64,000 bases of DNA, from positions 1-64,000 of the IMG/VR virus record IMGVR_UViG_3300032073_000011; one strand, 5' to 3'. Positions 45,917 to 64,000 of this stretch are shown in pieces. The position numbers and the translations under genes are program-made. Within the stretch, counting starts at the first letter, position 1, and each line of letters starts with the position of its first letter. The notes under the pieces were generated by a model. It had not been told where the DNA came from. It searched no databases and worked only from the letters and a program-made list of their open reading frames with translations. The stretch is from a virus.

Positions 45917-48900
45917 TTAATATCCACCACCACCACTAGACATACCCCCACCGGTTGACCTACCTCCCGAGGAGTTAGATATTCTACTTGTGTTTATACT
46001 ACTACCTATTCCTCGCCTACCAGTTTGTATATTATCAGTAGGGGTTAGAGTGTAGTTTTCTAACCAACTTAGGTCATCAAAACCTAATTCTTTTAAACCT
46101 TTTATACACAATAAATTATCTGTACTTCCTTTTTTTGTAAAGACTGCCTTAGATGTAAATTTTGTTCTGTTAGTCTGAAAACTATTTGCTAATTTATTGG
46201 TTTCTTTACTAAGTAATGGACTACCTATAAATCTACCTTGATTATTTATATTATAAGAAGTAGCGTAACTAGAAAGTGGTATGGTACTTGAGCCTGAAAA
46301 TAAATTGTCATAATAAGTTGTACCAGATTGTGGTGGTGTGGGCATGGACATCATTCTAGCTGAATTACTAAATAAAGGCCATGGATAACCAGTGTATCCA
46401 CTTGCGGAAGTGGTAAATGTCATTGAGTACACACTCTGCAGTGGGTCACCACTTACAGTAAAACATTTATAAACAAACTTATCTCTATGGAATGCAGAAT
46501 TTTCTACCTTAACACCACTTGTCCAAAGTGTTGTTGTGGGAAGCATCTGCTCAACAATTTTTATCCAATAATCACCTAAAGCTTGTGTATAATCAATCAT
46601 TTTTTGATAGGTGTATTGATTATTTTCACCACAATTTTTGTTTAAATATTCTAAATAAATTTGTTGTAGTGTTGGGTACCCACCTGTCTTACCATCATTT
46701 ATTGTCATTCTATTTTTGGCGTCTATAAAAACTTTCCAAAAATGATTTTTAAATGTTTTAAAATCTAAGGTTTTTGCATTTATCTTTGGATTTGTAGAGT
46801 CCCAAACACCACCTGGTCTAGGGTATGGTGAAGGTAGTGTACCACCACTAAAGAAACAATCCGACTTAACCGATTGTTGCCACACATCGTAAGTTAAACC
46901 TTGGCCTATATTAAGGGATAAATCAACATTTTTTACATTTAATACTAGTTTTTCACTTTGTGTTTGGTAATACGCGTCTCTATTATTGAAAGAGTAGTCT
47001 CTGTACTGTGTTCCTTCTTGTAGTACCCAAGATTTTTTATCATCATTAATTCTGGTAAGTCCAAACCCAAATGACATGTGTGGAAACCTCCTAAATCTAT
47101 CTAGATAAGGTGCTTTTACTAAATTAGAATATTGACCCATCGTCCAAAAACCACCCCATGTAAATTCTGCGTATTTAGTAACAGTATTAGGTGTACACCC
47201 AGTTAGGGTAGAAGCACTTAAATTTAAAACTAAGTCTGATTTATGTTCTTCAGTCATTTCAAACCAACCAGCTCCTCTTTGGAAAAAGTAACTTTCGGTA
47301 AATCTAGGTTTTGTGGGGTATCCCTGTGTGTCTATAGGATAGTCTGATAATACAAATGGATTAAAGGTTGTACCTGTAGAAATATAATATTGGTTAAATG
47401 GTATACTATAATTTAGTGTTTCTGTAGTATAGGACCCACCAGATATTTTTTCCCATTGGTAGTCGAATTTATTTTGTATTTTTTGGTATGATGCAACTTC
47501 TCCAGCTGCTCCTTTAGACCATTCGAATCTCATACCTGGATTCATATTTATAGGAGCTCCAGCTATCACCACATATTCATTAAACTCAACCAAAGCTTCT
47601 GGTGCACCTAACAAAGTGAGTAAAAATTCTATAGATTTTCTAGTTCCTTTTGATTTAAATAGATAGGCTGTATTAAGTAATATTCTTCTATATAATTCAA
47701 TATCTAATTCTGCTGGTGTTTGTGAAACACTGGTACCGGAGTATTCGGGTGTATTAACACCTAAAACACTATCTAAAAATGTTGTGTTATCTAAAGTACT
47801 TGGTGTAGACCAACCTAAAGTTTTTGCGAAATTTTTTATTAACTCATTAGGTATATTATTTTTACCGTCGTAACTTACATTTGTCATATAAGCTATCCCA
47901 TCTACAAATGTTTTTATATTATCAAAACTCCTACCATAAATCTGTAAAGTTTTTTCTATATATTGGTTTGTACCGTCGAATTCTTTTAATTGTGGTGAAG
48001 TTAAAAATCTAGAAACTAGATTGGTTTTTTCTCTATCGATTTCATCACCTAAGTCCGCTAATTTTATTAAATAATTAGTATATCTATCACTATCGATGTC
48101 TATATTTACATTATCTTCTAAAGGCCAAGTTTGTTTTACTTTATCATAATATTTTACACCACTAGTTGTTTCTTTTACTACTTGGAATATTGAGGTATAT
48201 ATTGGTGTGATATCTCTATTAACTAAAAACTTTTCCACATTACCTAGATTTTTAAACTCTTCTTCTGTTTGGTTTTGTGTTGGTCTTATGTAGAATGTTT
48301 CTATTGTTGAGGTTACTATTGTTCCACCAGTCAATGGTAAATTAAATGGGTTACCTTTTACAGTAAATTCTATGTAGTCGGTCGTTGTTGTTTGTGGTTT
48401 AAATTCTTTAATTCTGTATTCTTTTTCACCAATCTGACCACTAAAACTTAAAGCGTATTTTTTAAAATGTTGTGTAATATTTCTAATTGGTGAGACTGTC
48501 CCATCAGCAATCTTTAGTAGGGTATCAGCGGAAACCCCAAAAGTGTTAAAATTATTTAATATTTGTTCTTTACTTATAGCACCGGTTAATAAATCTCCAT
48601 TTGTGGTAAATTCTAAACTAAATGGGTTGGATAGGGTGTTTACGTTGGTTTTAAATGTGGTTTCTTCAGTACTTAAACTATATAAAATATCATAAGCTGT
48701 AGTATTACCTGAAACAAGGTTAATGTTAACCCCATCCACAAATAAGGCTGCGGGAAAAAAATTAACTACGTTTTGTGTGGCTACAGCTAGACGTTTTTTT
48801 AATGACCCATATAAAACAAAACTAGATATTTCACTCATATCATTATTAACAAAAACTTCTAAACTATTACTTGTTAGTTTTTGAGCGAGAGCTAAACTTT

Positions 48901-49108
48901 CATTACTTAAAGACTCTAGGGTTATTGGTGTTGAGAATGTCCCTAAATTATATTCTGGTGTGTTGGGTTGGTTGTATGAAGGTTGTGTGTAAAAATTACC
49001 TAGGGTCATTTGCTGTGAACCCATAAATTGATTTCCAACAAGAAAATCACTAAAGGTATCCCCTCCGTTATTAGGGGCCGGTGGATATCTAAATCGATTA
49101 CTAGCCAT
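45917..49108 (-). CDS. putative baseplate wedge-like protein
   Basis: ELYRRILLN.AYLFKSKGTRKSIEFLL, a KGT motif typical of baseplate/tail-I-like proteins. Gly/Ser tail. Confidence 0.6.
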   Translation of the reverse strand: MASNRFRYPPAPNNGGDTFSDFLVGNQFMGSQQMTLGNFYTQPSYNQPNTPEYNLGTFSTPITLESLSNESLALAQKLTSNSLEVFVNNDMSEISSFVLYGSLKKRLAVATQNVVNFFPAALFVDGVNINLVSGNTTAYDILYSLSTEETTFKTNVNTLSNPFSLEFTTNGDLLTGAISKEQILNNFNTFGVSADTLLKIADGTVSPIRNITQHFKKYALSFSGQIGEKEYRIKEFKPQTTTTDYIEFTVKGNPFNLPLTGGTIVTSTIETFYIRPTQNQTEEEFKNLGNVEKFLVNRDITPIYTSIFQVVKETTSGVKYYDKVKQTWPLEDNVNIDIDSDRYTNYLIKLADLGDEIDREKTNLVSRFLTSPQLKEFDGTNQYIEKTLQIYGRSFDNIKTFVDGIAYMTNVSYDGKNNIPNELIKNFAKTLGWSTPSTLDNTTFLDSVLGVNTPEYSGTSVSQTPAELDIELYRRILLNTAYLFKSKGTRKSIEFLLTLLGAPEALVEFNEYVVIAGAPINMNPGMRFEWSKGAAGEVASYQKIQNKFDYQWEKISGGSYTTETLNYSIPFNQYYISTGTTFNPFVLSDYPIDTQGYPTKPRFTESYFFQRGAGWFEMTEEHKSDLVLNLSASTLTGCTPNTVTKYAEFTWGGFWTMGQYSNLVKAPYLDRFRRFPHMSFGFGLTRINDDKKSWVLQEGTQYRDYSFNNRDAYYQTQSEKLVLNVKNVDLSLNIGQGLTYDVWQQSVKSDCFFSGGTLPSPYPRPGGVWDSTNPKINAKTLDFKTFKNHFWKVFIDAKNRMTINDGKTGGYPTLQQIYLEYLNKNCGENNQYTYQKMIDYTQALGDYWIKIVEQMLPTTTLWTSGVKVENSAFHRDKFVYKCFTVSGDPLQSVYSMTFTTSASGYTGYPWPLFSNSARMMSMPTPPQSGTTYYDNLFSGSSTIPLSSYATSYNINNQGRFIGSPLLSKETNKLANSFQTNRTKFTSKAVFTKKGSTDNLLCIKGLKELGFDDLSWLENYTLTPTDNIQTGRRGIGSSINTSRISNSSGGRSTGGGMSSGGGGY

Positions 49109-49113
49109 AATTA

Positions 49114-50034
49114 CTAAAAGTTAGTTATTGTACCAAACGCTTGACTAAAATCAATATTGTTCCCTCTATTTTCTTTTACTTCGTATAATTGTCCGTTAAA
49201 TTGGTCTCTTACTTCATATAAATCATATTGCATATATATGTTGTTGGTACCAGATAAATCGTAAAGTGTGTAAATTCCATTATCGATAGATTTGGCTTGA
49301 TTTCCATATAATGCGATAGCAAGTGTATCGAAATCATGGTCTACCATTTCTATGTCGAGTACAGTGGGATTAAAGTAAGTGTTAGTGATTATGACTGATT
49401 GTCCGGGTTGTCCTATAAATGGTATAGCATTTGGATTATTAGATGGTGCACTTGTCGGTGTTAAGGTACAGTAAACCAAATTAGTTTTTGCATTTGTATA
49501 TACATATCTAGGTGAGGTTTGATTCGGGTTTGTATTATTTTGTTCTACTGTTGTACAATAAAAATTAGAAGTGACTATTCTATAAAAATTATTAATTTTT
49601 GCTCCACTATCAGCGTCTAAATATTCTATTCTATAACCTACTAAATCCATAGGTGAAAATCTATTTCTAAATTGTGCGGGTATAGTGTTTAAATCGAACA
49701 CCAAACCTTTTACGTTTGGTAGTGATGATAATATACCACAATCTAATATTGTGGTTCTAATTTCTATAGGTCTTATGTAAACAGTATATATCCCTTTATT
49801 AGAAAATACGGCTGAAGGTAATTTTAAATCGTAAAGACCGCCTAGTACCTCTCCTACTGGACCACCTGTTTGTAAACCATTATGTACTATTGGTGTTAGT
49901 ACGGTTGCAGCATTTATTTCGAAAACAGAAACAGCTGAACTTGCGTCTCGGTCTGCCTGTTGGTGTACTATTATTTGTACATCCTCAACTTTTACGTCTG
50001 CTGGTCTTTTAATTCCGTATGCTCCTAATGCCAT
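49114..50034 (-). CDS. putative virion structural protein
   Basis: 306-aa beta-rich ORF in the structural module. Confidence 0.65.
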   Translation of the reverse strand: MALGAYGIKRPADVKVEDVQIIVHQQADRDASSAVSVFEINAATVLTPIVHNGLQTGGPVGEVLGGLYDLKLPSAVFSNKGIYTVYIRPIEIRTTILDCGILSSLPNVKGLVFDLNTIPAQFRNRFSPMDLVGYRIEYLDADSGAKINNFYRIVTSNFYCTTVEQNNTNPNQTSPRYVYTNAKTNLVYCTLTPTSAPSNNPNAIPFIGQPGQSVIITNTYFNPTVLDIEMVDHDFDTLAIALYGNQAKSIDNGIYTLYDLSGTNNIYMQYDLYEVRDQFNGQLYEVKENRGNNIDFSQAFGTITNF

Positions 50035-50288: not shown

Positions 50289-50921
50289 TTATTTCCCTAC
50301 TAATTCTGTTGCTGGAAAATATTTTTTGTAGTCTCTTAGGTAAATTTCGTCGTCGTATTTAAATCCGTTATTTATTCTCTGTATTTGTTTTACCGATGGA
50401 AATTGTAATTTTGTAACCCAGAGACCTTCAATAACCTCTTCTTCTATATTCCAATTAGAAACTATCATATTATTTCTTTTAACATGGGGTGCGTAAGCTA
50501 GACCTACTTTTTCAAAGCTGTAAGGTTCACAATCTTTTATACCCCCCCTATAACAAATTTTATTTAATTCTACATTTTCTCTATTTTGGTAGTATACATC
50601 CATATAAAAATCACATTCTTCTAGTGCTACCCTAGATAAATCTATCAAAGTATCTCTAATTAATTCTAATTTATTATTACCGTCATCTATTAAAATAATA
50701 TCTATATCCCAGCTATTCCAATTTATGTTACCATTAATATAATTAGGAAAAGAACCTGTCAACAACACATCAAATTGGTTAAAATAAGATTTTTTTTCTA
50801 CAATATTTAACCACTTTTCAAATCTTCTAAGTGTGGGTCGGTAGATTTTTTTACTAACTGATATGGGGCCTACTTCAAAGTTAAAAAATCTACCAAATTC
50901 TATTTCTCTTCTTATACTCAT
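50289..50921 (-). CDS. Pol-beta-superfamily nucleotidyltransferase-like protein
   Basis: hG[GS] motif LTGSF, DxD motif WDIDII, third acidic strand YMDVY. Confidence 0.65.
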   Translation of the reverse strand: MSIRREIEFGRFFNFEVGPISVSKKIYRPTLRRFEKWLNIVEKKSYFNQFDVLLTGSFPNYINGNINWNSWDIDIILIDDGNNKLELIRDTLIDLSRVALEECDFYMDVYYQNRENVELNKICYRGGIKDCEPYSFEKVGLAYAPHVKRNNMIVSNWNIEEEVIEGLWVTKLQFPSVKQIQRINNGFKYDDEIYLRDYKKYFPATELVGK

Positions 50922-50922
50922 C

Positions 50923-53900
50923 TTAGGTTGGCATACACTGACATCTATCCCAATCCCATTGATATCCCTCCGGACAACTTTCAGTTTGTATACAAGGTTC
51001 TTCGGTCACCCAATCATCCTCGATAGGTCCTCCAGGTCCAATAACTATTGGTACACAACTACAGTCTGATTGAGACCAAACTTGTCCAATAGGGCACGCC
51101 CAAGTTGGTGGTACACAACAGTCACTAGTTGGTTTTGTTACCCACCCTATACCTAACCAAAACTCACAATCACATGGGTTGTATGTGGTAGGCAGTGTTT
51201 GATAAATCCAAGTACCATCTTTTTTAAGTTTTCCACAACATTCGTTACATGGGGTTACTGGTGGTGGACATGGTGAATTTTGACATGCTTGTAGACTAGT
51301 ATATGGACCACCTGGTACTGGTACACACTCGTGATTACTTGGGTCGAATATTGTTGGTCGGTGTAGACAATCATAGTAAATACTCCCTGAAACTCCACTA
51401 CATGGAAAGGACCCTGAAGGTGTACAACTAACCCAACCATAAATATTTCCATCAGTAAAAGGAACAATAACACCAGCACCGTAATATTCCCAATTTCCAT
51501 CTTGGTTTGTATCATACACAGCACACGGAGATGAATTAGAAAAACCAGGACCTCTAACGGGGTCATCATGGTCAACCCATCCAGAACCAAAATCATTAGG
51601 GTCTACATTAGGTGACATCATACAACAATAACAACAACCGTCATTTGGGTCTACGACACATTGGTTCTGGTAAAAGTGTTGGTATGCTGGTGTTTTCCAC
51701 TGTAAAGGTAGTGTTGCTCCCCAATTAGTAGACATGTAGGTATCACAATTATTACAATCTACCGCACCAGTACTATTATCACATGGAGAACCATCTGTTG
51801 TAACCTTACAATCCATCCACATCGCACCACCACCTATATTTACACCTACATTTAATGATGGTTGATATCCGGATTTACAAATTACTTTAGTTGGTGATGG
51901 ACCTGAGCCTCCTGGACCTGAGCCTCCTGGACCTGAGCCTCCTGGCCCAGCGGGACTTATAGTTCCATCATTCCTTTTAATCTTTGAATGAGGGTCATCG
52001 TCGTCATGTGGGTCGTCTGGCCCAAATGGGTATGGAACACAACAATAACAACAACCATCATCTGGGTCTGTCACACAATCATTCTCTACGTAGGCTGGGT
52101 TAAATGTAGAATACCATATACCTTCATAATCTATAGGTCCTGTTAAGTAACCAGATAGGGTTTGTGCACAATCTTCACAACCTTGTTTACAATTTGCTAT
52201 ACATAATGATAAAGCATTTGGTCCTTGATATTGAGCTGTACCAGTATTATTTTGAATACAGTTACAACTTCCTGGACAATTAACACAATCGTAACCTATA
52301 TCCGGTGGTGTTGTTGAACATTTTGGGTCACATGGCCACCATATTGGTCCTCTATTTTGAATATTTATTTCCGGAGTTACTGGTGTTGGGTCTTGTGTCC
52401 CATTATAATATTTCCCCAGTAAGTGATTCTGGTAGATTTGACTAGGTGAATAACTCATAATATCACTACCAGTAAAATGACAATTATCACAAACTAAGAC
52501 ATAACAACAATCATCATATGGGTCTTTAACTATATCAAATGGAGTATATATAGTTCCTGATAACCAAAGACCTGCAATATTTGATGATGCTAGTGGAAGA
52601 GTTTGTGTGAAACCTATACTATAGGTACCGTTATGGTGAACGTAAGTTGGTGATATAAACGAAGATGGTGGACATTCTGTTGAACAGTCAGTTGATTGAT
52701 TTTCACAACAGTTTGATACTGGTATTCCGTTTTGGCAATCACTAAGGGTAGCGTAGGTCCCAAATCCTGATACGTTAACTACACATTTACATAAACCGTT
52801 ATTACCGGGAACACAATCATATCTACCGGTATGACCAGTATAACAACAATCATTAACTTGAGCTTCACAATCTGCTTGAGTAGGCCAAACACCACTTGCT
52901 GTTTGTACACATTTACAACCACCTGCTTTTGGACCAAAATCAACACATTCCCAATCTTTTGTTACTCCCGTATAACAACAATTATTATTAATTGCTGTTT
53001 GACAATCATGTAACGTTGAGTATGGTCCGGTAGGGTCTATGACACAAGAACAATCTTTAGTACATCTCCACATATCTGGCATTGTTCTTCCTGAACAACA
53101 TGTTGTTGGGTCATTTTCACAATCAAATAAAGCGTTTGGTCCGGTATAACTTCCCATCCCTGCGGGTACAACGACACATTCACATTTAAAATTATTTGCA
53201 CCTACAGGTCCTATAATTGGAATTTTTCTACACTCGTACTCATCATACCTTATTGTACAACAGTTATTAGAGTTATAACATTCTGTTTGAGAACTAAATC
53301 CTGTTATGTCATTTGGTATAAACGTACAGTCACATATTTTTGGGTCACATTTCCAACTACCACAACAAGGGTCGTAATTTAGAGTAGTTTGACAACCTGA
53401 TAAACTATTAAAAGCTCCTGTTGGACCATTAACTTGTACACAGACACAAGGAGTTTGTGTACATCTACATGGGGTCATTTGTATGTCCATACATTTATCT
53501 CTAAGATATGAACCCCAAATTGCATTTATCCCTAAACACACATCATCCCAACTACTTGATAAGCTCAATATTGTACCACTTGGTGATGTTACTCCCGCAC
53601 CAGCTAAACTAGTAATCATAGAACTCCATGTGTTGTAACTTCCAGGTATCCCTATCATAACGCCCACATTTGGGTGTATTACAATTGGTCCGTTTACCTG
53701 ATATAGTGGTGCTGCATTAGGAGTACCTGCAGCATATGTACATGGGTTACTAAATATAGGTCCAGGTCCATAATAAGGGAATTTTATAGTCATGACATCG
53801 GTTGTTTGTAAATAAGGTACACCTGCTGGTGCTCCTATTACTTCCAATAAATCATACTGATTTAATGTTGCTGTAGGAGGAACCACTAAATTACGGTTAG

Positions 53901-56900
53901 AACAACTATCCGTAATGGTTCCTGGTATACAATCATAAGTCTGTTGCATAACACCCGGTACACAATCAGGGTCACATGGTATCCACTGTAAACTTAATGT
54001 TCCACCTCCTGGCCAAACTGGGTTACTTGTATTTAAATCGTTAATATATGCTTGGTAGTAAAAATAAGGTGGTACTGTCCAATCTTGAGATGTATCCCAA
54101 ACATTCACATAACAACAAGATGTATTATCAAAACTAAATGTAACAACATCTCCTATGTTATATACTTGTCCTGATACCCAAGGTAAAGCACCTGTACTCA
54201 TATTAACTGGTGTTGAGCCTAACACCCAAGACATAGTTCCAGTATCATACATTTGATATGTTATAGGACTATTTGTTGTACAGTGATAACATCTACAACA
54301 AGAACCATCAGCACCAAATAAAGTTAGTGATTGAACATAAGTTTCACAATCTAACATATTTGTAAATGGATATGGTGAACATGAAGGGGATACCGGACCA
54401 TTTACGAATTGACAATGACAATCTCCTGCTGGAGGAACACAGTCACCACAAACAAAATTACACTCATCAGTACAAGCTGCGGCGTTTGTTCCAAAGAAAG
54501 TAACACATGGATTTCCATCACTACCCATTGGTGGAGTTCCTATATATGATAAACAACCATCAACTGCATGACAACAATATTCAGTTTGTGGTTCCCTACA
54601 AGTTCTATCACCTGTAACTGTTAATTGTTGTTGAGCACAATCTCCTGGTGAGGTAGAACTTGGTAGTCCTGTACCACAAGATGCTGTACCACCACTACAA
54701 GTCATATCACCCCATGCACAAGCTACAACTGTTGGGTCACCGCACAAATCACAAACACCGGTACCTGGAGGTGCACAATCACAACAGAATCTACATCTTT
54801 CTTCACACTGTGCTTGAGTAGGGAATCCCATTCCCGTAGGTACGTTACCTAGTGTTACCGCAAAAAAGTAATTATTATTTGGGTCCGAAGGTCCACCTGC
54901 GGCTTGTCCTATCGCTTGTGATTGGTATGCACTACCTTGACCTACAAAGTAGGAGCTTGGTTGACATGGTTGTGAACCTGGGGTGTCATACAATCCTGCG
55001 TCCGCACCAGCCCAATCACACCACCATTCTTCTGATAAGTTTTGACATAAACAATTAGTATTTGCCAGTTCACAAGCTGTAGCTGAAGGATATGTAACTG
55101 AAGCTAACGACATTGGTATAAATTGGCAAGTTTGTGCTCCTTGGGAATTACACTCCCAAGTACACCATTCTTGACATCCTGATAAACTAGTAAAAGTTCC
55201 TCCACTACCCATTACTGGGTAACAACCTACACCACCCACACAAGGATTACCCGCCACTGTAGGACAGTTACAACTACTGTCACATTCCCAGGTCATAATA
55301 CTTGTATTTCCCGTACAACAAAATGCAAATCCAGGGTCTATCTGTGATTGACATAGGTCTAGAGACCCATAAGGCCAGGTAGTCAAAACACCGGTCATTT
55401 GAAAAACAATCCCGGGTTGAACTGGTGGCCATGTAAATGGAAATGGTGAATAACCATTAAAATGAATACCTAAGTTACCTGTCCCTGGTGAATATATATC
55501 ATTTAAATAATCTTGCATAACTACACAATTAGAAACATCTACTGGTTCTAATCCTGCTGGTGGTCCTGGGTCTGCACAATAACAGTCTGCTGTACATTGG
55601 TCGATACCCATTCCAATTAATGGTGTACTACAAGTTCCACCCGTATAACAGTTATTTTGTGTTGCCCATATCGAAACGTTTACACCTGGAGGTGGGTCAA
55701 ATATACCACCCACACCACTAGCTGTAGAAGAAGGCAGTGACCCACAACCTGAAGTGCAACCACTAGGGGTACACCACATTGTAGCGGCAGAACTAGGTCC
55801 ATCACAAGGACCACAAGGGTCACCTATAGTTGGTACTGGAGTTGCTGGGTCATAAGCTGGTAGTCTTTCACATGTTTGCCAACAATTTGGTGGTCCGTTT
55901 ACTGTATATGGTCCATCATCTGGGGGACTAGAATCACAATCATAACCTGTACCAGTTATATCTGGTGGACACATACACATGAAACAACATTCAGGTGTAT
56001 TTCCGTCACTATAACTTACAGTCTCAAACATATTATAAGTGTTAGTGTTAGACCATGGCCCTGACCAAGTAAATGCACTAGTAATTGGTATTCCGTTTAC
56101 AGTTAACCAATCTTCACATGCACAATTACAAGTTTCTTCTACAGGTGCACAACAAGTCATACCTGTTGTGTTTAGTGGGTCTGGGTCCGGACATAATGCG
56201 TTAACACAATCTATCATGTCACAGTAAGGTAATCCTGGATTGTCATCAAAACACTGTACAATACCAGTTAATCCATTCATTGAATTTACATAAGCTGGAG
56301 AACAACAATTAACATTTGTTGGGCCAACCTGTAGGTCTAAGTTAGTTTGTGAAATCCAATAACATGGTAGTTGTCCTCCACCACCACCTTGTAGTGCTGG
56401 ACCTGTAGTTGTGTAAGCTGACCAACCATTTAGTCCTGCTTGAATTGGGTCATCTTCACATACTGCTCTACAACATTCTGTTGCGTTACAACATTCTTCA
56501 AAAGAGGTATACCCCGTAGGGTTACCAAATGGGTCTGTCGGGGAACCTGGGGACCAAGTAACTCCAAGTTGTATCATAACATACTCACTTGCGTAGTATG
56601 TACATCCACCTACTTGTTGTCCTATTTGTGCAGGGGGATTTGTATCGTCATATACAAAACAATCAAAACCACCAGGACAAGTACACCCTGTTTGACATTG
56701 TGGTAAATCTGGGAATGTTGGTGGACTACCGAATGGGTTTGGTGGCCAATAAGGACAGGACGCTGCGTTAGTAATTGGGTCTTGGTATATGGTACATGGT
56801 GTAGGATTTGTACAATCACAAACATAACATACGGTAGAACAGGAACAGTTCATTTCACAATCAATGTGCCCCTGTAAATCATATGCGTAACCACAATTTA

Positions 56901-59679
56901 AAGTAGAACAAGTTGTACAAGGGTCACACATAGGGTCACATACCCATCCACAAGGGGTGTTACCTATACCTAACCATTGTGGGTTAGCGGCATAACAAGA
57001 TGCTTCATCGGTATACCCAGTACCCACATATACCGGTTTACAACCTTCTTCACAATTATAAATCCACCTAGTATAATCACAACAACCCGTGTAAGTTCCG
57101 GCTGAATTCGTAAATCCACCATTACAATCACTTATATCGTAAGGGTCAAAAAATAATTCAAAATTAAATGCCGCGTAGTCTACAAAATTTAAAAATGGTG
57201 CTGGTGTAGGTGGTAAAGTACTCATTACTGGTAATACACTATCAACATAAAATGAGGTTCCGTTTAAAAGGTCCTCATCACATGAAAGTAATTGACAACA
57301 ATTCCCTCCAGCTGCTGGTGAACTAGTAGTACATGAAAAAGCTGGGGGATTACACCAATTATTACAGTCAATTTCACTATCAAAAACTGGTCCTTGATTA
57401 GGGTCTAACCCACTTGGGTCATTATATAAAGGGTGTGCTGAAGTAATTTCTATACAATTACCACAAGAATATTGGTCTTCACAAACATACCTATCTTCAC
57501 AACAATTACCTAAGTAAAAAGTATCCATACAATCTTCAAAAGCTGTAAATCCGACACTTGTACAAGGACCTGTATTTGTTGACCCCGTACCTGGTACTAA
57601 TTGACATGAAAGACTAGATGCTGTTAAAGCTGATACTGGTGGACATACCCAACTAGAACATCCAATATAATCCCAATATTGATTATTGGTTAGGCCGGAT
57701 GGTGGTGGTAACGTACCACCTGATAAAGCTCTATAACAATTACCCCATTGACCTAAAGTAAATTGTCCTGTTGAGTACACATTACCATTACTGTATACTC
57801 CCGCTGGACCCACAGGTGATATGGTAGGATACGCATTCCATGTGTTAGTTGGGTCATAACAAGGTATAGCTGTAAAGTCTGGGCATGATTCACACTCTGG
57901 AGTACAAGCCTCCCAAATATGTTCTGTTGGTTGTCCGTTATTCCACCAAACTCCTTGTACTAAATCAGTTGGTTTAATTCCAGCCCAAGGGTCTATAGTT
58001 CCACCACTCTGATTAATATCTGTTACTGCCATATAACAACAACACTCCCCCCAAGTAGAGTCAAATACTATATCTCCTTTAACATAGTTTGTCGTTGCCG
58101 ACCATTCACCCCAATTAGTGTTAATCATTGGGTCGAAACTTATAGGTTCTGGTAGTGTGGTTATTCTATCAATATATTCGTCTTTTGTTTCACAGTAAGT
58201 ACAATCTTCTATTGCACATTTTACACAATCAAAAGCACCGAAAGCAAAAGCATCCATACCACAACTTGTAGCTTCATATAAAGTAACACCATTACTAAAG
58301 TCATAAAAAGTTATTGGTGTATTTGTACCAATACTAATAGTATAAGCAGTATATTGTGTGTTTTCTACTGTAATTCTACCCATAACCCCTTGTTCTATAA
58401 GGTTGGTTATTGGATTTATTACTTCACCCATAATCGGTACATCAACATTTATTTGGTATCCCGGTGGTAAATTACCAGTTTGTAGTGATGTGTATGTTTG
58501 AAACGCACCTAGTAAACTTTGTGTGTTACCTGTAACCTCAAAACAATTACTATTATTACCACCACCAAATATAGGTGACATACCACTATATTGTAATATA
58601 TCGGTACCAGAATCTAAAGGTGAAAAAGGATAGGCACCAAAATATGTATTAGTACCTGTAGGTCCAGTAGGTCCAACTACTGGAGCGTTACTAGGAGCTA
58701 TACCTGTATTAAGAACTGAATTGTAAGGTTGAGCTTGTAATGTATTATAAGGCATGAATGGAACTGTTATAACTTGAGAAACTGAAGTTGGTCCCCATTC
58801 ATTTTGATGAGTTATGGTAATCCTTCTTTGTCCTACACCAGCATAAGTATGTGGTGTTGGGTTTGTAAGATTTGGAAATTGTAGGGTTTCACAACAAGGG
58901 TCACCAAATGAATTTGTACAAGGTGGTGTCACACAATCACAAGGACAGTCACCCCACTCTATAGTATATGGTGAATTTTGGTAGGTTTTGTAATAACCAA
59001 AATCCGTAGTATTATATATTTGTATTTGGTTACCCATCGCGGTGGTTGCGGTAACAATAAAATTAGAAAAAATATCTTTTTGACCTAGATTTCCATCCCA
59101 AATATCATAATGCCCTATATCATTAAAATCTTGTTCTAGGAAAATAGGTATTTGATGTAAGTCATTAAATACTGGTGGTGGACAAAAACAAGATACTGTG
59201 TTTGGTGTTAAGTGTGCACTAGTTTGGGTGTTTAGTGGTTGTGATAAAGTAGAATTTGTTAAAGAAAAAATACTTATTAAATCATCATAACTTTCACCAG
59301 TAAATGTCATTACCCCAGATTGGTATAAATTTAACCCAGCAAATATAACATAAGGATGGGATTCTACATCCAAACAAAATGGTTGATTCATAGTTGGTGC
59401 ATTACCGTATGGTGGTGGTGCACCCATTACTGGCATCGTAGTTGTATCATTTAATAGGATACATGGGTTTGTTGACGAACATCCAGTTAGTTCGGTAGGA
59501 AAATTATTCATGTCACCCTGTAAAGCGTTCTGTACTTGACTAAATGTAGAGTTGTACATTGTTAATCCTGAACAGTTAGGGCTTGTATTGATAGGGTAGA
59601 AATTAGTTCCACCGGTACAAGGTACTGTAAAATAAACACTAGGGTTACTTCTTTTTATTCTATATTTGTATACTTCCAT
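50923..59679 (-). CDS. giant Cys/Pro/Gly-rich repeat protein (putative tail fibre/adhesin) with PKD-like and CBM5/12-like modules
   Basis: 2918-aa uninterrupted ORF. PKD-like WGD...HTY, repeated W....Y..GD.V modules, about 20 Cys modules. Confidence 0.8.
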   Translation of the reverse strand: MEVYKYRIKRSNPSVYFTVPCTGGTNFYPINTSPNCSGLTMYNSTFSQVQNALQGDMNNFPTELTGCSSTNPCILLNDTTTMPVMGAPPPYGNAPTMNQPFCLDVESHPYVIFAGLNLYQSGVMTFTGESYDDLISIFSLTNSTLSQPLNTQTSAHLTPNTVSCFCPPPVFNDLHQIPIFLEQDFNDIGHYDIWDGNLGQKDIFSNFIVTATTAMGNQIQIYNTTDFGYYKTYQNSPYTIEWGDCPCDCVTPPCTNSFGDPCCETLQFPNLTNPTPHTYAGVGQRRITITHQNEWGPTSVSQVITVPFMPYNTLQAQPYNSVLNTGIAPSNAPVVGPTGPTGTNTYFGAYPFSPLDSGTDILQYSGMSPIFGGGNNSNCFEVTGNTQSLLGAFQTYTSLQTGNLPPGYQINVDVPIMGEVINPITNLIEQGVMGRITVENTQYTAYTISIGTNTPITFYDFSNGVTLYEATSCGMDAFAFGAFDCVKCAIEDCTYCETKDEYIDRITTLPEPISFDPMINTNWGEWSATTNYVKGDIVFDSTWGECCCYMAVTDINQSGGTIDPWAGIKPTDLVQGVWWNNGQPTEHIWEACTPECESCPDFTAIPCYDPTNTWNAYPTISPVGPAGVYSNGNVYSTGQFTLGQWGNCYRALSGGTLPPPSGLTNNQYWDYIGCSSWVCPPVSALTASSLSCQLVPGTGSTNTGPCTSVGFTAFEDCMDTFYLGNCCEDRYVCEDQYSCGNCIEITSAHPLYNDPSGLDPNQGPVFDSEIDCNNWCNPPAFSCTTSSPAAGGNCCQLLSCDEDLLNGTSFYVDSVLPVMSTLPPTPAPFLNFVDYAAFNFELFFDPYDISDCNGGFTNSAGTYTGCCDYTRWIYNCEEGCKPVYVGTGYTDEASCYAANPQWLGIGNTPCGWVCDPMCDPCTTCSTLNCGYAYDLQGHIDCEMNCSCSTVCYVCDCTNPTPCTIYQDPITNAASCPYWPPNPFGSPPTFPDLPQCQTGCTCPGGFDCFVYDDTNPPAQIGQQVGGCTYYASEYVMIQLGVTWSPGSPTDPFGNPTGYTSFEECCNATECCRAVCEDDPIQAGLNGWSAYTTTGPALQGGGGGQLPCYWISQTNLDLQVGPTNVNCCSPAYVNSMNGLTGIVQCFDDNPGLPYCDMIDCVNALCPDPDPLNTTGMTCCAPVEETCNCACEDWLTVNGIPITSAFTWSGPWSNTNTYNMFETVSYSDGNTPECCFMCMCPPDITGTGYDCDSSPPDDGPYTVNGPPNCWQTCERLPAYDPATPVPTIGDPCGPCDGPSSAATMWCTPSGCTSGCGSLPSSTASGVGGIFDPPPGVNVSIWATQNNCYTGGTCSTPLIGMGIDQCTADCYCADPGPPAGLEPVDVSNCVVMQDYLNDIYSPGTGNLGIHFNGYSPFPFTWPPVQPGIVFQMTGVLTTWPYGSLDLCQSQIDPGFAFCCTGNTSIMTWECDSSCNCPTVAGNPCVGGVGCYPVMGSGGTFTSLSGCQEWCTWECNSQGAQTCQFIPMSLASVTYPSATACELANTNCLCQNLSEEWWCDWAGADAGLYDTPGSQPCQPSSYFVGQGSAYQSQAIGQAAGGPSDPNNNYFFAVTLGNVPTGMGFPTQAQCEERCRFCCDCAPPGTGVCDLCGDPTVVACAWGDMTCSGGTASCGTGLPSSTSPGDCAQQQLTVTGDRTCREPQTEYCCHAVDGCLSYIGTPPMGSDGNPCVTFFGTNAAACTDECNFVCGDCVPPAGDCHCQFVNGPVSPSCSPYPFTNMLDCETYVQSLTLFGADGSCCRCYHCTTNSPITYQMYDTGTMSWVLGSTPVNMSTGALPWVSGQVYNIGDVVTFSFDNTSCCYVNVWDTSQDWTVPPYFYYQAYINDLNTSNPVWPGGGTLSLQWIPCDPDCVPGVMQQTYDCIPGTITDSCSNRNLVVPPTATLNQYDLLEVIGAPAGVPYLQTTDVMTIKFPYYGPGPIFSNPCTYAAGTPNAAPLYQVNGPIVIHPNVGVMIGIPGSYNTWSSMITSLAGAGVTSPSGTILSLSSSWDDVCLGINAIWGSYLRDKCMDIQMTPCRCTQTPCVCVQVNGPTGAFNSLSGCQTTLNYDPCCGSWKCDPKICDCTFIPNDITGFSSQTECYNSNNCCTIRYDEYECRKIPIIGPVGANNFKCECVVVPAGMGSYTGPNALFDCENDPTTCCSGRTMPDMWRCTKDCSCVIDPTGPYSTLHDCQTAINNNCCYTGVTKDWECVDFGPKAGGCKCVQTASGVWPTQADCEAQVNDCCYTGHTGRYDCVPGNNGLCKCVVNVSGFGTYATLSDCQNGIPVSNCCENQSTDCSTECPPSSFISPTYVHHNGTYSIGFTQTLPLASSNIAGLWLSGTIYTPFDIVKDPYDDCCYVLVCDNCHFTGSDIMSYSPSQIYQNHLLGKYYNGTQDPTPVTPEINIQNRGPIWWPCDPKCSTTPPDIGYDCVNCPGSCNCIQNNTGTAQYQGPNALSLCIANCKQGCEDCAQTLSGYLTGPIDYEGIWYSTFNPAYVENDCVTDPDDGCCYCCVPYPFGPDDPHDDDDPHSKIKRNDGTISPAGPGGSGPGGSGPGGSGPSPTKVICKSGYQPSLNVGVNIGGGAMWMDCKVTTDGSPCDNSTGAVDCNNCDTYMSTNWGATLPLQWKTPAYQHFYQNQCVVDPNDGCCYCCMMSPNVDPNDFGSGWVDHDDPVRGPGFSNSSPCAVYDTNQDGNWEYYGAGVIVPFTDGNIYGWVSCTPSGSFPCSGVSGSIYYDCLHRPTIFDPSNHECVPVPGGPYTSLQACQNSPCPPPVTPCNECCGKLKKDGTWIYQTLPTTYNPCDCEFWLGIGWVTKPTSDCCVPPTWACPIGQVWSQSDCSCVPIVIGPGGPIEDDWVTEEPCIQTESCPEGYQWDWDRCQCMPT
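51898..51945. repeat. perfect 15-bp tandem repeat x3 (GGACCTGAGCCTCCT), encoding GPGGS
   Basis: Read directly. Confidence 0.95.
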
Positions 59680-59682
59680 ATA

Positions 59683-60633
59683 TTAAGGGTTTACGTATTC
59701 ATAAAATCTTATTGGTACAGCGTTAGGTACTTGTAGGGTACCAGGAACTGCATCTGCGGGTGTACCACCTGGTAAACCAGTTCCAGCAGGTCCACCACCA
59801 CCTAAAGCCATGATTGCTTCATTAAATTGTGTAACAACATATCTAAATTTAGGGTCTATTGTAGATGCGTTACTGGGGTTTATAAATAATTTAACTTTAT
59901 AATAAAACCATTCTGGATAACTTAACACCTCCCCATTGGTTATTTCACTAAGGGTTGGTGGCTTGTTTATCATATTAGTTACTTTTCCATTTTTTGCGTT
60001 AAAAAATTTACATGACATATAAAACTCATCAATTTCTGTAAGTTCTCTATCTTTTAACCATTGTATATAATAATTTTCACTTCTGCCGTGTAGTGGTCCT
60101 AAGACACAAACAGGCACATACACACCATACTTAGGGTTAGTAATGTTATTAGCTATTTGTGAATAGTACTCTGTGGGGTCCTCTAGTGGTAGTATCTCTG
60201 TCATTTCTTTCATACAATTATTTAAAGGCATAACGTTGGTGAACATTATTTTTTGTTCCTTTCTTAGGGGAGAATCGTAGAAATCAAATTTAAAAAAACT
60301 TCTTGTAAAAGCTTTTTTAGGTTTATGTAAATCTTTATCTTGGAAACCTAGAACATTAAAATTATCAACATACTGTAAAGTGTTAGGGTCCCAAAATTCA
60401 AAAGCGTAAGATATTGTGTTTGAGCCTCCACTAAATGTATTATTAACAGTGTTTCTATAAGCGTACCTGGTAGTTTCATAATCTTGTATTACATTTATAT
60501 TATCTTGTAATTCAACCTCTTCCCACGTCCTAACTAATTGTTCATTACCTATTTCGTCAAATGTCTGCCCTATGGGTATAGTTATAGACTTATCTTTCGT
60601 TGAAGCTTTTATATTTACTCTATTGACAGCCAT
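59683..60633 (-). CDS. putative virion structural protein
   Basis: 316-aa ORF with SFFKFDFYDSP, FYMSCKFFNAKNG, FYEYVNP. Confidence 0.65.
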   Translation of the reverse strand: MAVNRVNIKASTKDKSITIPIGQTFDEIGNEQLVRTWEEVELQDNINVIQDYETTRYAYRNTVNNTFSGGSNTISYAFEFWDPNTLQYVDNFNVLGFQDKDLHKPKKAFTRSFFKFDFYDSPLRKEQKIMFTNVMPLNNCMKEMTEILPLEDPTEYYSQIANNITNPKYGVYVPVCVLGPLHGRSENYYIQWLKDRELTEIDEFYMSCKFFNAKNGKVTNMINKPPTLSEITNGEVLSYPEWFYYKVKLFINPSNASTIDPKFRYVVTQFNEAIMALGGGGPAGTGLPGGTPADAVPGTLQVPNAVPIRFYEYVNP

Positions 60634-62410
60634 CAGTGTATTCGGTTAATATAGTTATTGTTGCTGAGGTTAGTGGGATTAATGCTGGCCCCACCGCCTC
60701 TATTTTAAATTCTAAATTATGGTAAGGGTAGTGAGCATCATTTAAATAGGGGTAACTAACACCATTATCCCCATCTTCATAAGCTTCTACCGGTAAAATT
60801 TCTCTCCACCTAAATGTTTCCTCTGATAAAGAATAAACAGCATACTGGGGTGATGTAAACAGACTATCATTATAACTTACATAATTAGAGAATTTTTTTA
60901 CAGGTATCTTGTGGTGTGGATGGTATTTAAAGATAGAATCTACAAAATCATATCCTGGTGTACCACCAACTTTATACATCGCATCTCTATTAAATTTTAA
61001 GGAATGTCCTATTTCTGAAATTACTCTTTCTTTTAACTCAAAAGGGTTATATTCAGCAAAAGCACCTCTAAGTGTACTTCCACTTAATGGTAATGGATTT
61101 ACCCCTAAATTACCGTTTTGAGTTACATTTATGGGGTGAATTGTGTTATCCACAAAAGGGTCTACCACCCCATTTTTTTTAAAGTTCCACCCCCAACCAT
61201 ATCCAGCTGGACTAGAATTACCACCAGGATTCCAATCCCAAACTAAATTTCTATTTGTAGTAAAAATTGTTAAATAAAATTCTGTTAAAGGCCTATTAAA
61301 TTGGTCGTAATAATCATCACTATTAATATTATAATTACAATTCCATAAAAATGAATCGTATTCTTGGATTAAAACCGACTTTTGTTTATAGTTTGGTGTT
61401 CTTTTTGCTGGAAATATTCTTCCTCTTTTATTGTATATCCCTCTTTCAAAACCTGTTTTATCTAAAGTTAAATCATTAGGGTTTGTTATTAATTTATGTA
61501 TTTGACAATAGTATTCAGATTTTGTCTCTAGCATATTTTCTGGGTTAGTGACTCTTTTTAAAGTACCTACTGGTTCTGTTGGTATTGAGGTAGCGTCTAA
61601 CCCTAATGTGGTAATATTCATAACATAATCTTCAGAATTTTCTAATCCATTACCCAAATAATCTACTTTAAATATAGTTTGAGGCCCACTTACCGGTGCA
61701 AATACAGTAGTAATTGCTACATCAACTAGTAGATTAGCGTTACCAAAAGTAGTTGCCCCAGATTGTATTTCTATATATTCTCCTGGTGATACACCATGTC
61801 TTACCGGTGTTATTATTTGTAACACTTCTTTACCATCAGTATTGGTCACTCTGGGGGTAAAAGGGATACCATCTCCAGCTACAAACTGCATACCAGAAGG
61901 TGTGGTGTAGTCTGTATAGTATTCCATTGTTTGTTCTGGGTCTGCATCATGTACATAAGAAATATATCGCACCCAATTATCTTGGTGTGCTAATATTGGT
62001 TCCCAACCTGCTTGACTAGGGTCAATACCATATCTTTTAGGTGGTATCATGGTAAAAGTACTAGATGGTGGTAAACCGGAACAACTAGTAGGTGGTACTC
62101 CACCTAAAAGATGGGGGCACCCTATATAATCTGGAATAAAATACATTGAGTCCATAAAATAAGCATCTTGTGTGCTACCACTAATAATATTGTTGTAAAG
62201 TATATCTATTTTCCCATATAACCTATATTGGGTTGAGTATTCTCTTTCAAAGTCAAATTGGTCTCTTAGGTCTAAAACTAGGTTTCTGTCACCTTCATGT
62301 ATTTGTTTTTGTGTGGATTCTAAAAACGGTTGTAATTGCAATTCTCTGTTAGGTGAACCAGCAAATTTAGATTCTCCTCTTACAATCCTTATGTTTTTTT
62401 CGTTACTCAT
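60620..62410 (-). CDS. putative virion structural protein
   Basis: 596-aa ORF in the structural module. Confidence 0.65.
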   Translation of the reverse strand: MSNEKNIRIVRGESKFAGSPNRELQLQPFLESTQKQIHEGDRNLVLDLRDQFDFEREYSTQYRLYGKIDILYNNIISGSTQDAYFMDSMYFIPDYIGCPHLLGGVPPTSCSGLPPSSTFTMIPPKRYGIDPSQAGWEPILAHQDNWVRYISYVHDADPEQTMEYYTDYTTPSGMQFVAGDGIPFTPRVTNTDGKEVLQIITPVRHGVSPGEYIEIQSGATTFGNANLLVDVAITTVFAPVSGPQTIFKVDYLGNGLENSEDYVMNITTLGLDATSIPTEPVGTLKRVTNPENMLETKSEYYCQIHKLITNPNDLTLDKTGFERGIYNKRGRIFPAKRTPNYKQKSVLIQEYDSFLWNCNYNINSDDYYDQFNRPLTEFYLTIFTTNRNLVWDWNPGGNSSPAGYGWGWNFKKNGVVDPFVDNTIHPINVTQNGNLGVNPLPLSGSTLRGAFAEYNPFELKERVISEIGHSLKFNRDAMYKVGGTPGYDFVDSIFKYHPHHKIPVKKFSNYVSYNDSLFTSPQYAVYSLSEETFRWREILPVEAYEDGDNGVSYPYLNDAHYPYHNLEFKIEAVGPALIPLTSATITILTEYTDGCQ

Positions 62411-64000
62411 TATATTACTGTATCTGATAATTCTTCATCTATATATTTCCTAACAAAAGTATTGAATGCTGTACCTCCAGGTCTTAAACCAAAATAATAA
62501 AATAATGGTTGTGAAAACACATAAGAATCACTACCTGGAATTGTACCATTAGTTACTGGGTAGTTGTTATTCGCAAATGAAAATGGTGGATTACCCATAT
62601 AGTGTTGGAAATTACCACTACTTAGATATTGTGTACCCCCGGAAAGACCTGGTACGGCATTTGTGGGGTGTATTGTTGAACCTTCTGCATCAACAGAAGA
62701 AATTGCTGGTAAAATTGACATTGCTGGTCCAGGTACACCGAACGCATATCTATATTCTCCTAGAGTACCTAACCAGTCATTCCAAACAGTACCGTACCCA
62801 CCAATTGGGACACCCCCAAGTGTACCACTCGCATTATGTAAATGCCATGGATAAAATGGTACAGTCTGACTAGATGCTGACAACTCCATAGTGACACAAT
62901 CTATTAAATCCTGACCATCCATAATAACTGATGTAGAACCTGTAAATAATAATGGTTCCCACAAAAGATTATGTCTAAAGTTATTTGAATTATTTATATC
63001 GTTTACATTAAGAGCATTGGGTACGTAAGTTCCTCCCACAAAATTTGGTGATGGGTAAGTTAGTCCACTTGGTGGTAGTGAGTCTGTTGGTGATGTGGAA
63101 AATCCTGGACCGTTACCAACTGGGAATTGACACTCACAAGCTGTATTACCATTATTTGCCTCATATCCTGCAACACCTAACATACAATTTTGCATAAGTG
63201 CTTGTGCTACATCACCACCAATTTCATATTCAGGACGAGGAAAGAACGTAGACATAGATGCCTTTGGATTTTGCATCTTAAGATTATAGGTATCAGAAAC
63301 TAGTTCTGTTATGTCTTGGAATGTTGTACTACCTATCTGGTCAGTCACAGAACATTCGTTAGCGTATTTAGGGTCTAAACATATTTGTTGTATACATTGG
63401 TTTCTAGACCCCATATCTACCATTGTTGTTGGAAAAAGAATATGTCTGTCTTGGTCACCCTTAGCGTGGTTACTACCACTACTACCCGCAAAAGCCCACC
63501 AAGGATTATATACACCATCAGTATCACCAATAAAACTTCCTTCTAGTGGTTGGATACCGTTAACTTTAAATGGTGTGGACCTATAGTAAAAAGTATGTTC
63601 TGTTGGGTGTAGGTAGGTTAATTTTTTACACCACTGGGAATTGGTGACGTAGGTATCATTGGCGGTATCATATTCTACCTTAGCTCTAAATTGGAATTGG
63701 TATAAGAATCCACTTACCCAACTATTTTCCCAAAAATAATTCATAATACCATTACATAATGCCTGTGATACTTTTTCTCTTCTGGTCCATTCTAATAAAA
63801 CTCTAAGATTATAGTTCTCAGCGACACAGTCTATATTAAAACATATTATTTTTACATAACAACCACCACCTGCTATACCATCCGTCGGGTCATTACTTGT
63901 ACTTGGGTCACCCGAAAAAGAAGAATTAAAACCATAATAGTCTGGGCAACATATTCTTGTCTCATCTGTTTGTGCACAACAATCATGTGACCACTTGCCA
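62410..64000 (-). CDS. putative large virion protein, partial (starts beyond right edge)
   Basis: The frame stays open from 63744 to the window edge (GKWSHDCCAQTDETRICCPDY...ALCNGIMNYFW). Ends FYYFGLRPGGTAF..F..KY. Confidence 0.75.
   Translation of the reverse strand, partial: GKWSHDCCAQTDETRICCPDYYGFNSSFSGDPSTSNDPTDGIAGGGCYVKIICFNIDCVAENYNLRVLLEWTRREKVSQALCNGIMNYFWENSWVSGFLYQFQFRAKVEYDTANDTYVTNSQWCKKLTYLHPTEHTFYYRSTPFKVNGIQPLEGSFIGDTDGVYNPWWAFAGSSGSNHAKGDQDRHILFPTTMVDMGSRNQCIQQICLDPKYANECSVTDQIGSTTFQDITELVSDTYNLKMQNPKASMSTFFPRPEYEIGGDVAQALMQNCMLGVAGYEANNGNTACECQFPVGNGPGFSTSPTDSLPPSGLTYPSPNFVGGTYVPNALNVNDINNSNNFRHNLLWEPLLFTGSTSVIMDGQDLIDCVTMELSASSQTVPFYPWHLHNASGTLGGVPIGGYGTVWNDWLGTLGEYRYAFGVPGPAMSILPAISSVDAEGSTIHPTNAVPGLSGGTQYLSSGNFQHYMGNPPFSFANNNYPVTNGTIPGSDSYVFSQPLFYYFGLRPGGTAFNTFVRKYIDEELSDTVI

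Follow-up and report, generated by a model that had tools for sequence, protein, structure and literature searches.

The window analyzed here is the stretch of viral DNA, 64,000 nucleotides long, that makes up positions 1 to 64,000 of the IMG/VR virus record IMGVR_UViG_3300032073_000011. It carries an open reading frame (ORF) for an unusually long, cysteine-rich protein of 2,918 amino acids and 311 kDa, referred to below as the giant. The giant contains 246 Cys residues (8.43%, about 1 in 12); the range for 12 neighboring ORFs is 0.5 to 2.4%. A first reading of the letters alone (the original prediction) had put Cys at one residue in ten, and the high content is borne out at this somewhat lower rate. 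The abundance of Pro and Gly described there was also found (9.6% and 9.8%), together with 9.8% Thr, 2.2% Lys plus Arg, and 0.9% His. The protein is strongly net negative (270 Asp plus Glu versus 63 Lys plus Arg). Its first 40 residues, read from the translation, include no hydrophobic core, so the giant has no signal peptide, as had been proposed. The G+C content of the gene, 0.36 to 0.42 compared with about 0.31, fits the Gly-, Pro-, Cys-, and Thr-rich composition.

The full record is 102 kb long and judged to be 32% complete; the window covers its first 64 kb. The record contains genes for a sigma-70 factor, DnaJ, primase, ribonucleotide reductase (RNR), DnaB, a UvsX-like protein, tail sheath, and baseplate wedge, and complete relatives with terminal repeats measure 308 to 321 kb. 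The source is an uncultured marine jumbo myophage with a genome of about 300 kb. Along the direction of transcription, the genes run gp25-like (155 amino acids [aa]; phrog_261, E 9e-18), gp6-like (612 aa; phrog_6, E 1e-18), 1,221 aa, 596 aa, 316 aa, giant, 210 aa, 306 aa, 1,063 aa, 1,307 aa, 1,185 aa, and 802 aa. From the gp25-like gene to the 1,063-aa gene, and apart from the 210-aa ORF, this order is shared by 6 giant-bearing loci and 8 sister-lineage loci. The giant ATG lies 3 nucleotides (nt) past the stop codon of the 316-aa gene, and the giant stop codon lies 1 nt ahead of the next ATG. The location in a phage tail module that had been suggested is thereby made specific: the giant sits in a conserved contractile-tail baseplate operon, three genes past the wedge genes. 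In Flavobacterium phage immuto, the nearest cultured relative, annotated tail fiber and tail spike genes likewise come after the wedge genes. The 210-aa ORF (50289-50921, minus strand) that begins 1 nt past the giant stop directly follows the giant in the four closest relatives, where it is 71 to 85% conserved; it is absent from the 2,454-aa, 2,636-aa, and 390-aa lineages and has no match in Pfam, PHROG, or NCBIfam.

A search among 5.8 billion proteins recovered 16 full-length orthologs (2,132 to 2,997 aa, 32 to 78% identity) in JGI, ENA, and Logan assemblies of independent metagenomes. Most of them cover more than 90% of the query, and one (P0010) lies on a 298-kb contig. IMG/VR contributed 11 further giant loci. 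Because the 16 orthologs and 11 loci have the same architecture and synteny, an assembly chimera, named at the outset as something that could overturn the prediction, is excluded. In a 17-sequence alignment, Cys is the most conserved residue (0.90), followed by Trp (0.67), with all others at 0.62 or less; this conservation likewise argues against an artifact of either kind, chimera or noncoding open frame, and we regard the probability of one as negligible. Identity to distant orthologs falls from 0.42 to 0.54 over the first 600 aa to 0.09 to 0.18 over the last 370 aa, and this drop is, by sequence comparison, the classical tail-fiber gradient. The N-terminal domain is also found on proteins with other C termini. 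The whole protein had no tblastn match in 50,697 records of cultured phages and no match to any PHROG family, and its full-length profile matched none of the PDB sequences.

The conserved N-terminal part has much smaller relatives. Comparison of residues 1 to 520 with shorter proteins gave 53 relatives, many of them of about 390 aa and matching residues ~177 to 505 with 24 to 28% identity. This ~390-aa family (P0181, annotated as "hypothetical protein" in related marine jumbo phages of 220 to 320 kb) was found at 80 IMG/VR loci, on contigs of up to 321 kb. Eight loci were examined, and in each of them the 390-aa gene lies between homologs of the 316-aa and 306-aa genes, and the gp6-like, 1,221-aa, 596-aa, and 1,063-aa homologs keep the same order. 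The 390-aa gene thus occupies the slot of the giant and is its positional ortholog. The two proteins share a PKD core, but the smaller one has only 4 or 5 Cys residues (1%), an uninterrupted WGDG loop, neither of the modules (a) and (b) described below, and none of the ~2,400-aa extension of the giant. Forms of 730 to 1,260 aa have the N-terminal start motif of the giant, 3.3 to 4.5% Cys, and 0 to 2 copies of module (b); Cys content within the giant family is 6.5 to 8.8%. Taken together, the shared slot and these intermediates indicate that a small protein of the baseplate cluster grew into the giant as Cys-rich modules accreted at its C-terminal end.

The PKD domain of the giant reads YTIEWGD-CPCDCVTPPCTNSFGDPCCE-...-HTY, with an insert that carries 6 Cys. 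Its homologs in P0181 and P0157 follow the pattern Y-x-[VI]-[DE]-W-G-D-G...H-T-Y (DWGDG or EWGDG), in register with EWGDC(insert)HTY of the giant. An AlphaFold2 (AF2) model of residues 1 to 680 was poor overall (predicted local distance difference test score [pLDDT] of 54), and Foldseek searches of the PDB with this model and with a second one gave nothing at an E value of ≤1e-3. Within it, residues 198 to 309 matched PKD structure 4l9d_A with a Z score of 7.4 and a root mean square deviation (RMSD) of 2.7 Å over 81 of 82 residues, and the best BFVD match to the model was a phage "PKD domain-containing protein" (E 6.6e-15). A Pfam scan of the giant itself gave no PKD match. Both the signature and the Ig-like fold are present, and the giant PKD is a divergent member of the family with an insert, in line with the PKD-like domain with a Cys-rich insert that had been read from the sequence.

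These results bear on whether the giant belongs to the virion at all. It could instead be made late and freed at lysis, for instance to act as a decoy, to bind the matrix, or to scaffold assembly; a Cys-rich cytoplasmic product might fold only outside the cell. Such a role is very unlikely in view of the tight coupling within the baseplate operon, with gaps of 3 and 1 nt, the positional orthology to a small conserved baseplate-cluster protein, and the fiber-like conservation gradient.

The C-terminal extension is composed of small repeated modules. Self-BLAST of the giant gave no off-diagonal rows, and the repeats were located with iterated hidden Markov models (HMMs). Module (a), with the consensus [WY]xC-loop-CxC[VI]...PxGx[YF]x[ST]Lx[DE]C......CC, was found in 13 copies at a domain E value of ≤0.01 and in about 18 under loose settings. 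Its helix core, [YFW]x[ST]xxxC, occurs 16 times, compared with 4.6 ± 2.0 in shuffled sequences. The original prediction of about 20 copies therefore identified a real module with a mildly high count, and the five clean tandem copies that it placed at about 52700-53360 proved to be six, at 52705-53475. AF2 predicted two strands (a beta-hairpin) and a short helix for each tandem copy (pLDDT 50 to 65). Other ORFs of the 102-kb record contain neither module (a) nor module (b).

Searching proteins with module HMMs, the check that had been proposed, yielded bacterial and phage-like metagenomic relatives of module (a). A profile of 52 copies matched 91 of 1.84 billion representative proteins at an E value of ≤1e-3, with 2 to 16 stretches in each and 621 instances in all. 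No family in Pfam, NCBIfam, or PHROG covers the module, none of the 91 proteins is named for the region, and an ESM Atlas search with the tandem region returned low-score unnamed clusters only. Most relatives have a 4-Cys form, YxCxxGxC...GxYxSLxxCxxxC, and the 6-Cys form with CxC and terminal CC dominates the giant family. The 4-Cys modules (more generally [WY]xCxxGxC...Gx[YF]x[ST]LxxCxxxC), which occur in type IX secretion system (T9SS) proteins of Flavobacteriales and in phage-like metagenomic proteins, share the hairpin-helix core and tandem layout of the giant but lack CxC and the terminal CC. They are found on proteins of 100 to 1,500 aa, the bacterial ones with signal peptides and Por_Secre_tail. 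Three relatives (P0034, P0063, and P0067) have signal peptides and T9SS sorting domains (Por_Secre_tail), and others carry an M43 peptidase domain, a Fib_succ_major domain, or DUF11 with fn3. Metagenome-assembled genomes (MAGs) of Flavobacteriales and Cryomorphaceae encode proteins with 5 or 6 modules, as found by a local HMM scan of loci; a genome search of three Flavobacteriales MAGs with the short (a) profile gave no match, although the local scan did find modules. In another match, P0024, the N-terminal region shows weak similarity to a virion structural protein of a Cellulophaga phage (E 3e-5). A group of metagenomic 4-Cys-module proteins without signal peptides (P0022, P0030, P0033, P0036, P0055, P0060, and P0100) shares the conserved N-terminal motif EEAKRIRxLHE. 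No relatives of this group, P0022 included, or of P0027, a further module-bearing protein, were found in IMG/VR.

The signal peptides and T9SS sorting domains of the relatives indicate that these are extracellular proteins. As judged from its relatives, module (a) is an extracellular domain of prokaryotes and phages and is not eukaryotic. The giant had been described as eukaryote-like; as a statement of ancestry this fails, since no eukaryotic Cys-repeat family matches and the relatives of module (a) belong to the T9SS cargo of bacteria or are phage-like proteins from metagenomes. With an E-value limit of 1, Pfam listed CBM_5_12 alone for the giant and no EGF, TSP1, granulin, or similar domain, and in the relatives the EGF family appeared only as sub-threshold EGF_TEN noise. 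The giant resembles the EGF- and fibrillin-type arrays of eukaryotes and giant viruses in its beads-on-a-string, Cys-stapled style but has no detectable homology to them. "Eukaryote-like" is thus the style of the giant, not its ancestry.

Module (b), with the consensus GxWxxxxxYxxGDxV...CCY, is present in exactly seven copies (seven regular-expression matches, compared with 0.5 in shuffled sequences); about seven CBM5/12-like modules had been predicted. CBM5/12 modules bind chitin or other insoluble glycans through exposed aromatic residues, and the consensus of module (b) includes a conserved W and Y. Solved chitin-binding domains have a small three-stranded beta fold of about 45 to 50 aa. 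In an all-against-all structural search, the model of the copy at residues 1832 to 1890 (model residues 30 to 107) matched 4hmc_A with a Z score of 5.0 and an RMSD of 1.7 Å over 46 aa, a low Z score for a model of moderate confidence. Further, consistent matches at Z scores of 2.8 to 4.5 were 4ny2, 4tx8, 8yug, 2d49, 2rts, 1ed7, and 6z40, and at least 10 of the top 25 structural matches were CBM5/12 chains. The model also aligns with phage baseplate or fiber chains, namely 9b45_2 of Pseudomonas phage Pa193 and the 9rkv_M fiber of Agrobacterium phage 7-7-1; like the chitinase domains 4hmc, 1ed7, and 2d49, these match the fold with Z scores of 4 to 5 and RMSDs of 1.7 to 2.3 Å over ~46 to 50 aa. 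Among the nine best BFVD matches to the N-terminal model, four were phage proteins with a chitin-binding annotation. The W...Y..GD.V motif is common to module (b) and CBM5/12-type domains. However, module (b) differs in its long inserts and in a CC(Y) pair that is conserved, whereas the known phage examples are small and Cys-poor. From these models, we accept a predicted CBM5/12-like fold for module (b), in agreement with the CBM5/12 likeness that had been noticed, and do not accept membership in the family. At the C-terminal end lie two CPxGxxWxxxxCxC units, module (d), as had been described; they are kept in closer orthologs and lost in distant ones. Positions of all features are collected in Table 1.

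Table 1 Features of the giant gene and of its surroundings (window positions unless marked as genome positions)
Feature	Position	Strand	Basis
Giant ORF (P0001), 2,918 aa plus stop codon	50923..59679	-	Open for 2,918 codons
N-terminal segment, residues 1-176, start motif M-[DE]-[VI]-Y-K-Y common to 730-1,260-aa relatives	59152..59679	-	Alignment
Conserved core, residues 177-505, homologous to ~390-aa 1%-Cys proteins	58165..59151	-	Homology and operon slot
PKD/Ig-like beta-sandwich, residues 198-309	58753..59088	-	Alignment and fold matches
6-Cys insert in place of WGDG loop, residues 243-263	58891-58953	-	Alignment
Module (b) copy 1, residues 524-590, CBM5/12-like	57910..58110	-	Profile
Module (b) copy 2, residues 627-694	57598..57801	-	Profile
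Module (a), dispersed copy, residues 873-910	56950..57063	-	HMM
Module (b) copy 3, residues 1207-1268	55876..56061	-	Profile
Module (a), two adjacent copies, residues 1463-1545	55045..55293	-	HMM
Module (a), partial copy, residues 1611-1633	54781..54849	-	HMM
Module (a), dispersed copy, residues 1742-1795	54295..54456	-	HMM
Module (b) copy 4, residues 1832-1890, source of Pfam sub-threshold match and chitin-binding fold matches	54010..54186	-	Profile and fold
Alpha/beta stretch, fold not assigned, residues 1989-2059, best-predicted stretch of C-terminal half (pLDDT 82-89)	53503..53715	-	AF2
Module (a), six tandem copies, residues 2069-2325	52705..53475	-	HMM and AF2
Module (b) copy 5, residues 2370-2434	52378..52572	-	Profile
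Module (a), dispersed copy, residues 2462-2501	52177..52296	-	HMM
Module (b) copy 6, residues 2520-2579, then GPGGS x3 linker at residues 2578-2596	51943..52122	-	Profile
Module (b) copy 7, residues 2659-2723	51511..51705	-	Profile
Module (a), dispersed copy, residues 2768-2815	51235..51378	-	HMM
Module (d), two CPxGxxWxxxxCxC units (residues 2862-2875; residues 2902-2915) in the region of the giant that diverges most	50935..51096	-	Motif
Upstream 316-aa gene, syntenic across relatives	59683..60633	-	Loci comparison
Upstream 596-aa gene, syntenic across relatives	60620..62410	-	Loci comparison
3′ part of 1,221-aa gene, running on to genome position 66075	62410..64000	-	Record beyond window
gp6-like baseplate wedge gene	Genome 66189-68027 (beyond window)		phrog_6
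gp25-like baseplate wedge gene	Genome 68029-68496 (beyond window)		phrog_261
Downstream 306-aa gene, 56-95% identity across relatives	49114..50034	-	Loci comparison
Downstream 1,063-aa gene, syntenic across relatives	45917..49108	-	Loci comparison

Chitinases of marine bacteria, like their particle-degrading enzymes, carry CBM5/12 and PKD modules. With its PKD domain, its seven CBM5/12-like modules, and its strong net negative charge, the giant could therefore be a virion protein without a part in host recognition: a tether that links the phage to particles of chitin or polysaccharide, to marine snow, or to mucus (as in the bacteriophage adherence to mucus model), or else a structural whisker or sheath-surrounding fibril. 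The true receptor-binding fibers could then be among the four large downstream ORFs (1,063, 1,307, 1,185, and 802 aa). However, the steep C-terminal divergence fits a host-range arms race more than binding to an invariant polymer, and we consider a tether unlikely. Neither reading is directly favored, and the tether differs from the host-recognizing fiber in its ligand only.

The original prediction had left open whether the cysteines form metal-thiolate sites or disulfides. In the giant, CC occurs 29 times (20.8 expected) and CxC 28 times (18.8 expected), while CxxC is at expectation (18 versus 17.4). The giant did not fit the pattern of zinc ribbons or zinc fingers (paired CxxC or C/H knuckles with fixed spacing), and Cys-to-Cys loops in module (a) range from 2 to ~19 residues. 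Among variable Cys columns of the substitution type, 53% have a Cys partner with exactly the same presence pattern within 80 columns, compared with 2 to 13% for 11 other residues. Seven clean covarying Cys pairs were found: 706/727, 918/947, 924/929, 1237/1266, 1702/1725, 2633/2642, and one present only in other orthologs. The change from the 4-Cys to the 6-Cys form of module (a) is likewise a gain of two Cys. The paired gains and losses, the excess of CC and CxC, the lack of CxxC excess, and the exported relatives together favor disulfides over zinc sites.

In the competing explanation, the same baseplate appendage would be held together by metal-thiolate (Zn/Fe) clusters formed in the reducing cytoplasm, and the ancestral 4-Cys module, with C-x3-9-C...C-x3-C set on a hairpin and a helix, would have a zinc finger-like fold. 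Both the predicted hairpin-and-helix topology of module (a) and the 4-Cys spacing of its ancestral form resemble a beta-beta-alpha zinc finger. Cytoplasmic assembly of phages, the failure to find an oxidase in related fragments, and the odd Cys totals of about half of the orthologs also agree with metal sites. Against this stand not only the CC and CxC enrichment without CxxC enrichment but also the scarcity of His, the range of loop lengths within one module type, the gain and loss of Cys by twos and not fours, the move of the module from 4 to 6 Cys, and the Sec- and T9SS-exported relatives. Metal-thiolate sites, the first option of the original prediction, are accordingly quite unlikely; the disulfide option is the favored one.

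Three other genes of the window concern thiols or folding. A glutaredoxin-like ORF of 114 aa (20633-20977, minus strand) has a CPDC active-site motif. Homologs of it occur in four of five related records, and two of these homologs exceed the Pfam cutoff; the protein might work with the phage RNR or in the exchange of thiols and disulfides as the fiber folds. A full-length cysteine synthase homolog (5560-6456, minus strand) matched TIGR01136 cysKM at E 7e-87 (291 bits, below the 344-bit cutoff) and Pfam PALP at E 7e-64. It is tempting as a source of Cys for the giant, but a link between the two could not be shown: searches of five giant-bearing fragments and of five sister genomes (76 to 100% complete) gave no copy of the gene. 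A full three-domain DnaJ (J, CXXCXGXG zinc-finger, and C-terminal domains; 11152-12156, minus strand) might assist the folding of virion proteins that are very large and multidomain.

On balance, the giant is probably a disulfide-stapled, glycan-binding baseplate fiber of a widespread clade of uncultured marine jumbo phages, built on an ancestral PKD-containing baseplate protein; we hold this with a confidence only somewhat above even. Residues 1 to 505, with the PKD domain, would represent the ancestral baseplate component and dock the giant on the baseplate periphery, and the ~2,400 residues added C-terminally would form a beads-on-a-string chain of small independent domains. In this chain, the 6-Cys hairpin-helix modules may act as rigid spacers and the seven CBM5/12-like modules as glycan-binding sites, with specificity presumably set by the fast-evolving C-terminal tip. 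About 120 Cys pairs would form intradomain disulfides. Since the reducing host cytoplasm bars disulfides, closure most likely takes place at release into oxic seawater, which would produce a protease- and shear-resistant fiber. The long modular adhesin fiber of the original prediction is supported in part, by the baseplate operon, the fiber-like gradient, the CBM5/12-like fold, and the disulfide-like Cys pattern, with eukaryotic ancestry removed. What we infer is that the giant is incorporated into virions and binds glycans, as well as the chemistry and timing of its disulfides and the identity of the host.

Several observations weigh against this interpretation. Virion membership of the giant is putative, read from gene context and sequence, and no sign of the trimeric architecture usual for phage fibers was seen in it. 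AF2 confidence was low for two models of the giant (mean pLDDT of 54 and 61). The Pfam match to CBM_5_12 (PF02839), at residues 1834 to 1848, scored 15.7 bits, below the cutoff of 26.2 (E 0.016), and the profile of 32 (b) copies aligned with 1ed7_A in register at E 0.28, below curated thresholds. Total Cys is odd in 12 of 22 ortholog rows (3 rows repeat another), so not every Cys is in an intrachain pair. Poxviruses and mimivirus encode cytoplasmic disulfide pathways with an Erv1/ALR oxidase. PF04777 (Erv/ALR), PF00085 (thioredoxin), and PF01323 (DsbA) were absent from five related records (19 to 48% complete); no sulfhydryl oxidase, thioredoxin, or DsbA that would account for ~120 correct disulfides was thus found in the phage fragments. 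Finally, the links to a host are weak. The nearest cultured relatives of the gp6-like protein are Flavobacterium phages (27% identity to Flavobacterium phage immuto). The host is probably a Flavobacteriia-type Bacteroidota. A scan for Bacteroidota-type promoters with a 19-nt spacer showed no enrichment (3 versus 2.15) and was not used for this assignment.

Disulfides have precedents in phages assembled in the cytoplasm. They are present in the baseplate, fiber, or sheath of cyanophage Pam3 (PMC9942802) and Agrobacterium phage Milano (PMC10811340), and their reduction with dithiothreitol has functional consequences in both (PMC9942802; PMC10811340). In those phages, however, a few intersubunit bonds link ordinary proteins, while the giant would have ~120 putative intradomain bonds in one chain. 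A bolder possibility, which we regard as doubtful, is that the giant is a redox-gated device: made reduced and largely unfolded, it would dock by its Cys-poor N-terminal core and form its ~120 disulfides only in oxic seawater, so that the virion became adhesive or infective after lysis. The hairpin-helix module would have passed between the phage and the T9SS surface proteins of its Flavobacteriia host, so that both would adhere to the same particles of polysaccharide. If true, virions would mature here in a new way, and the surfaces of phage and host would share a disulfide domain family that has not been described.

Three further genes of the window lie outside these subjects. A 391-aa ORF (9659-10834, minus strand) inside the phage genome matches DruA, a Druantia defense protein, in Pfam (E 7e-25). 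A GlnII-type glutamine synthetase gene (1464-2510, minus strand) matches NF041605 at E 5e-133, below the cutoff. Among the large late ORFs, a 260-aa protein with 4.6% Cys (35184-35966, minus strand) contains a dockerin/EF-hand-like calcium-binding repeat (Dockerin_1, E 1e-6).

Tail fibers decide what a phage sticks to and infects, and those of the abundant uncultured marine jumbo phages are essentially uncharacterized. The giant shows how a small baseplate protein grew, module by module, into an appendage of 311 kDa, and its conserved N-terminal core could mark the baseplate of this phage group. It also brings to light a family of small Cys-stapled domains, outside curated libraries, that is common to phage proteins and to secreted proteins of marine Flavobacteriales. 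Further, it poses the puzzle of how a chain with ~120 Cys pairs is folded for a virus assembled in a reducing cytoplasm.

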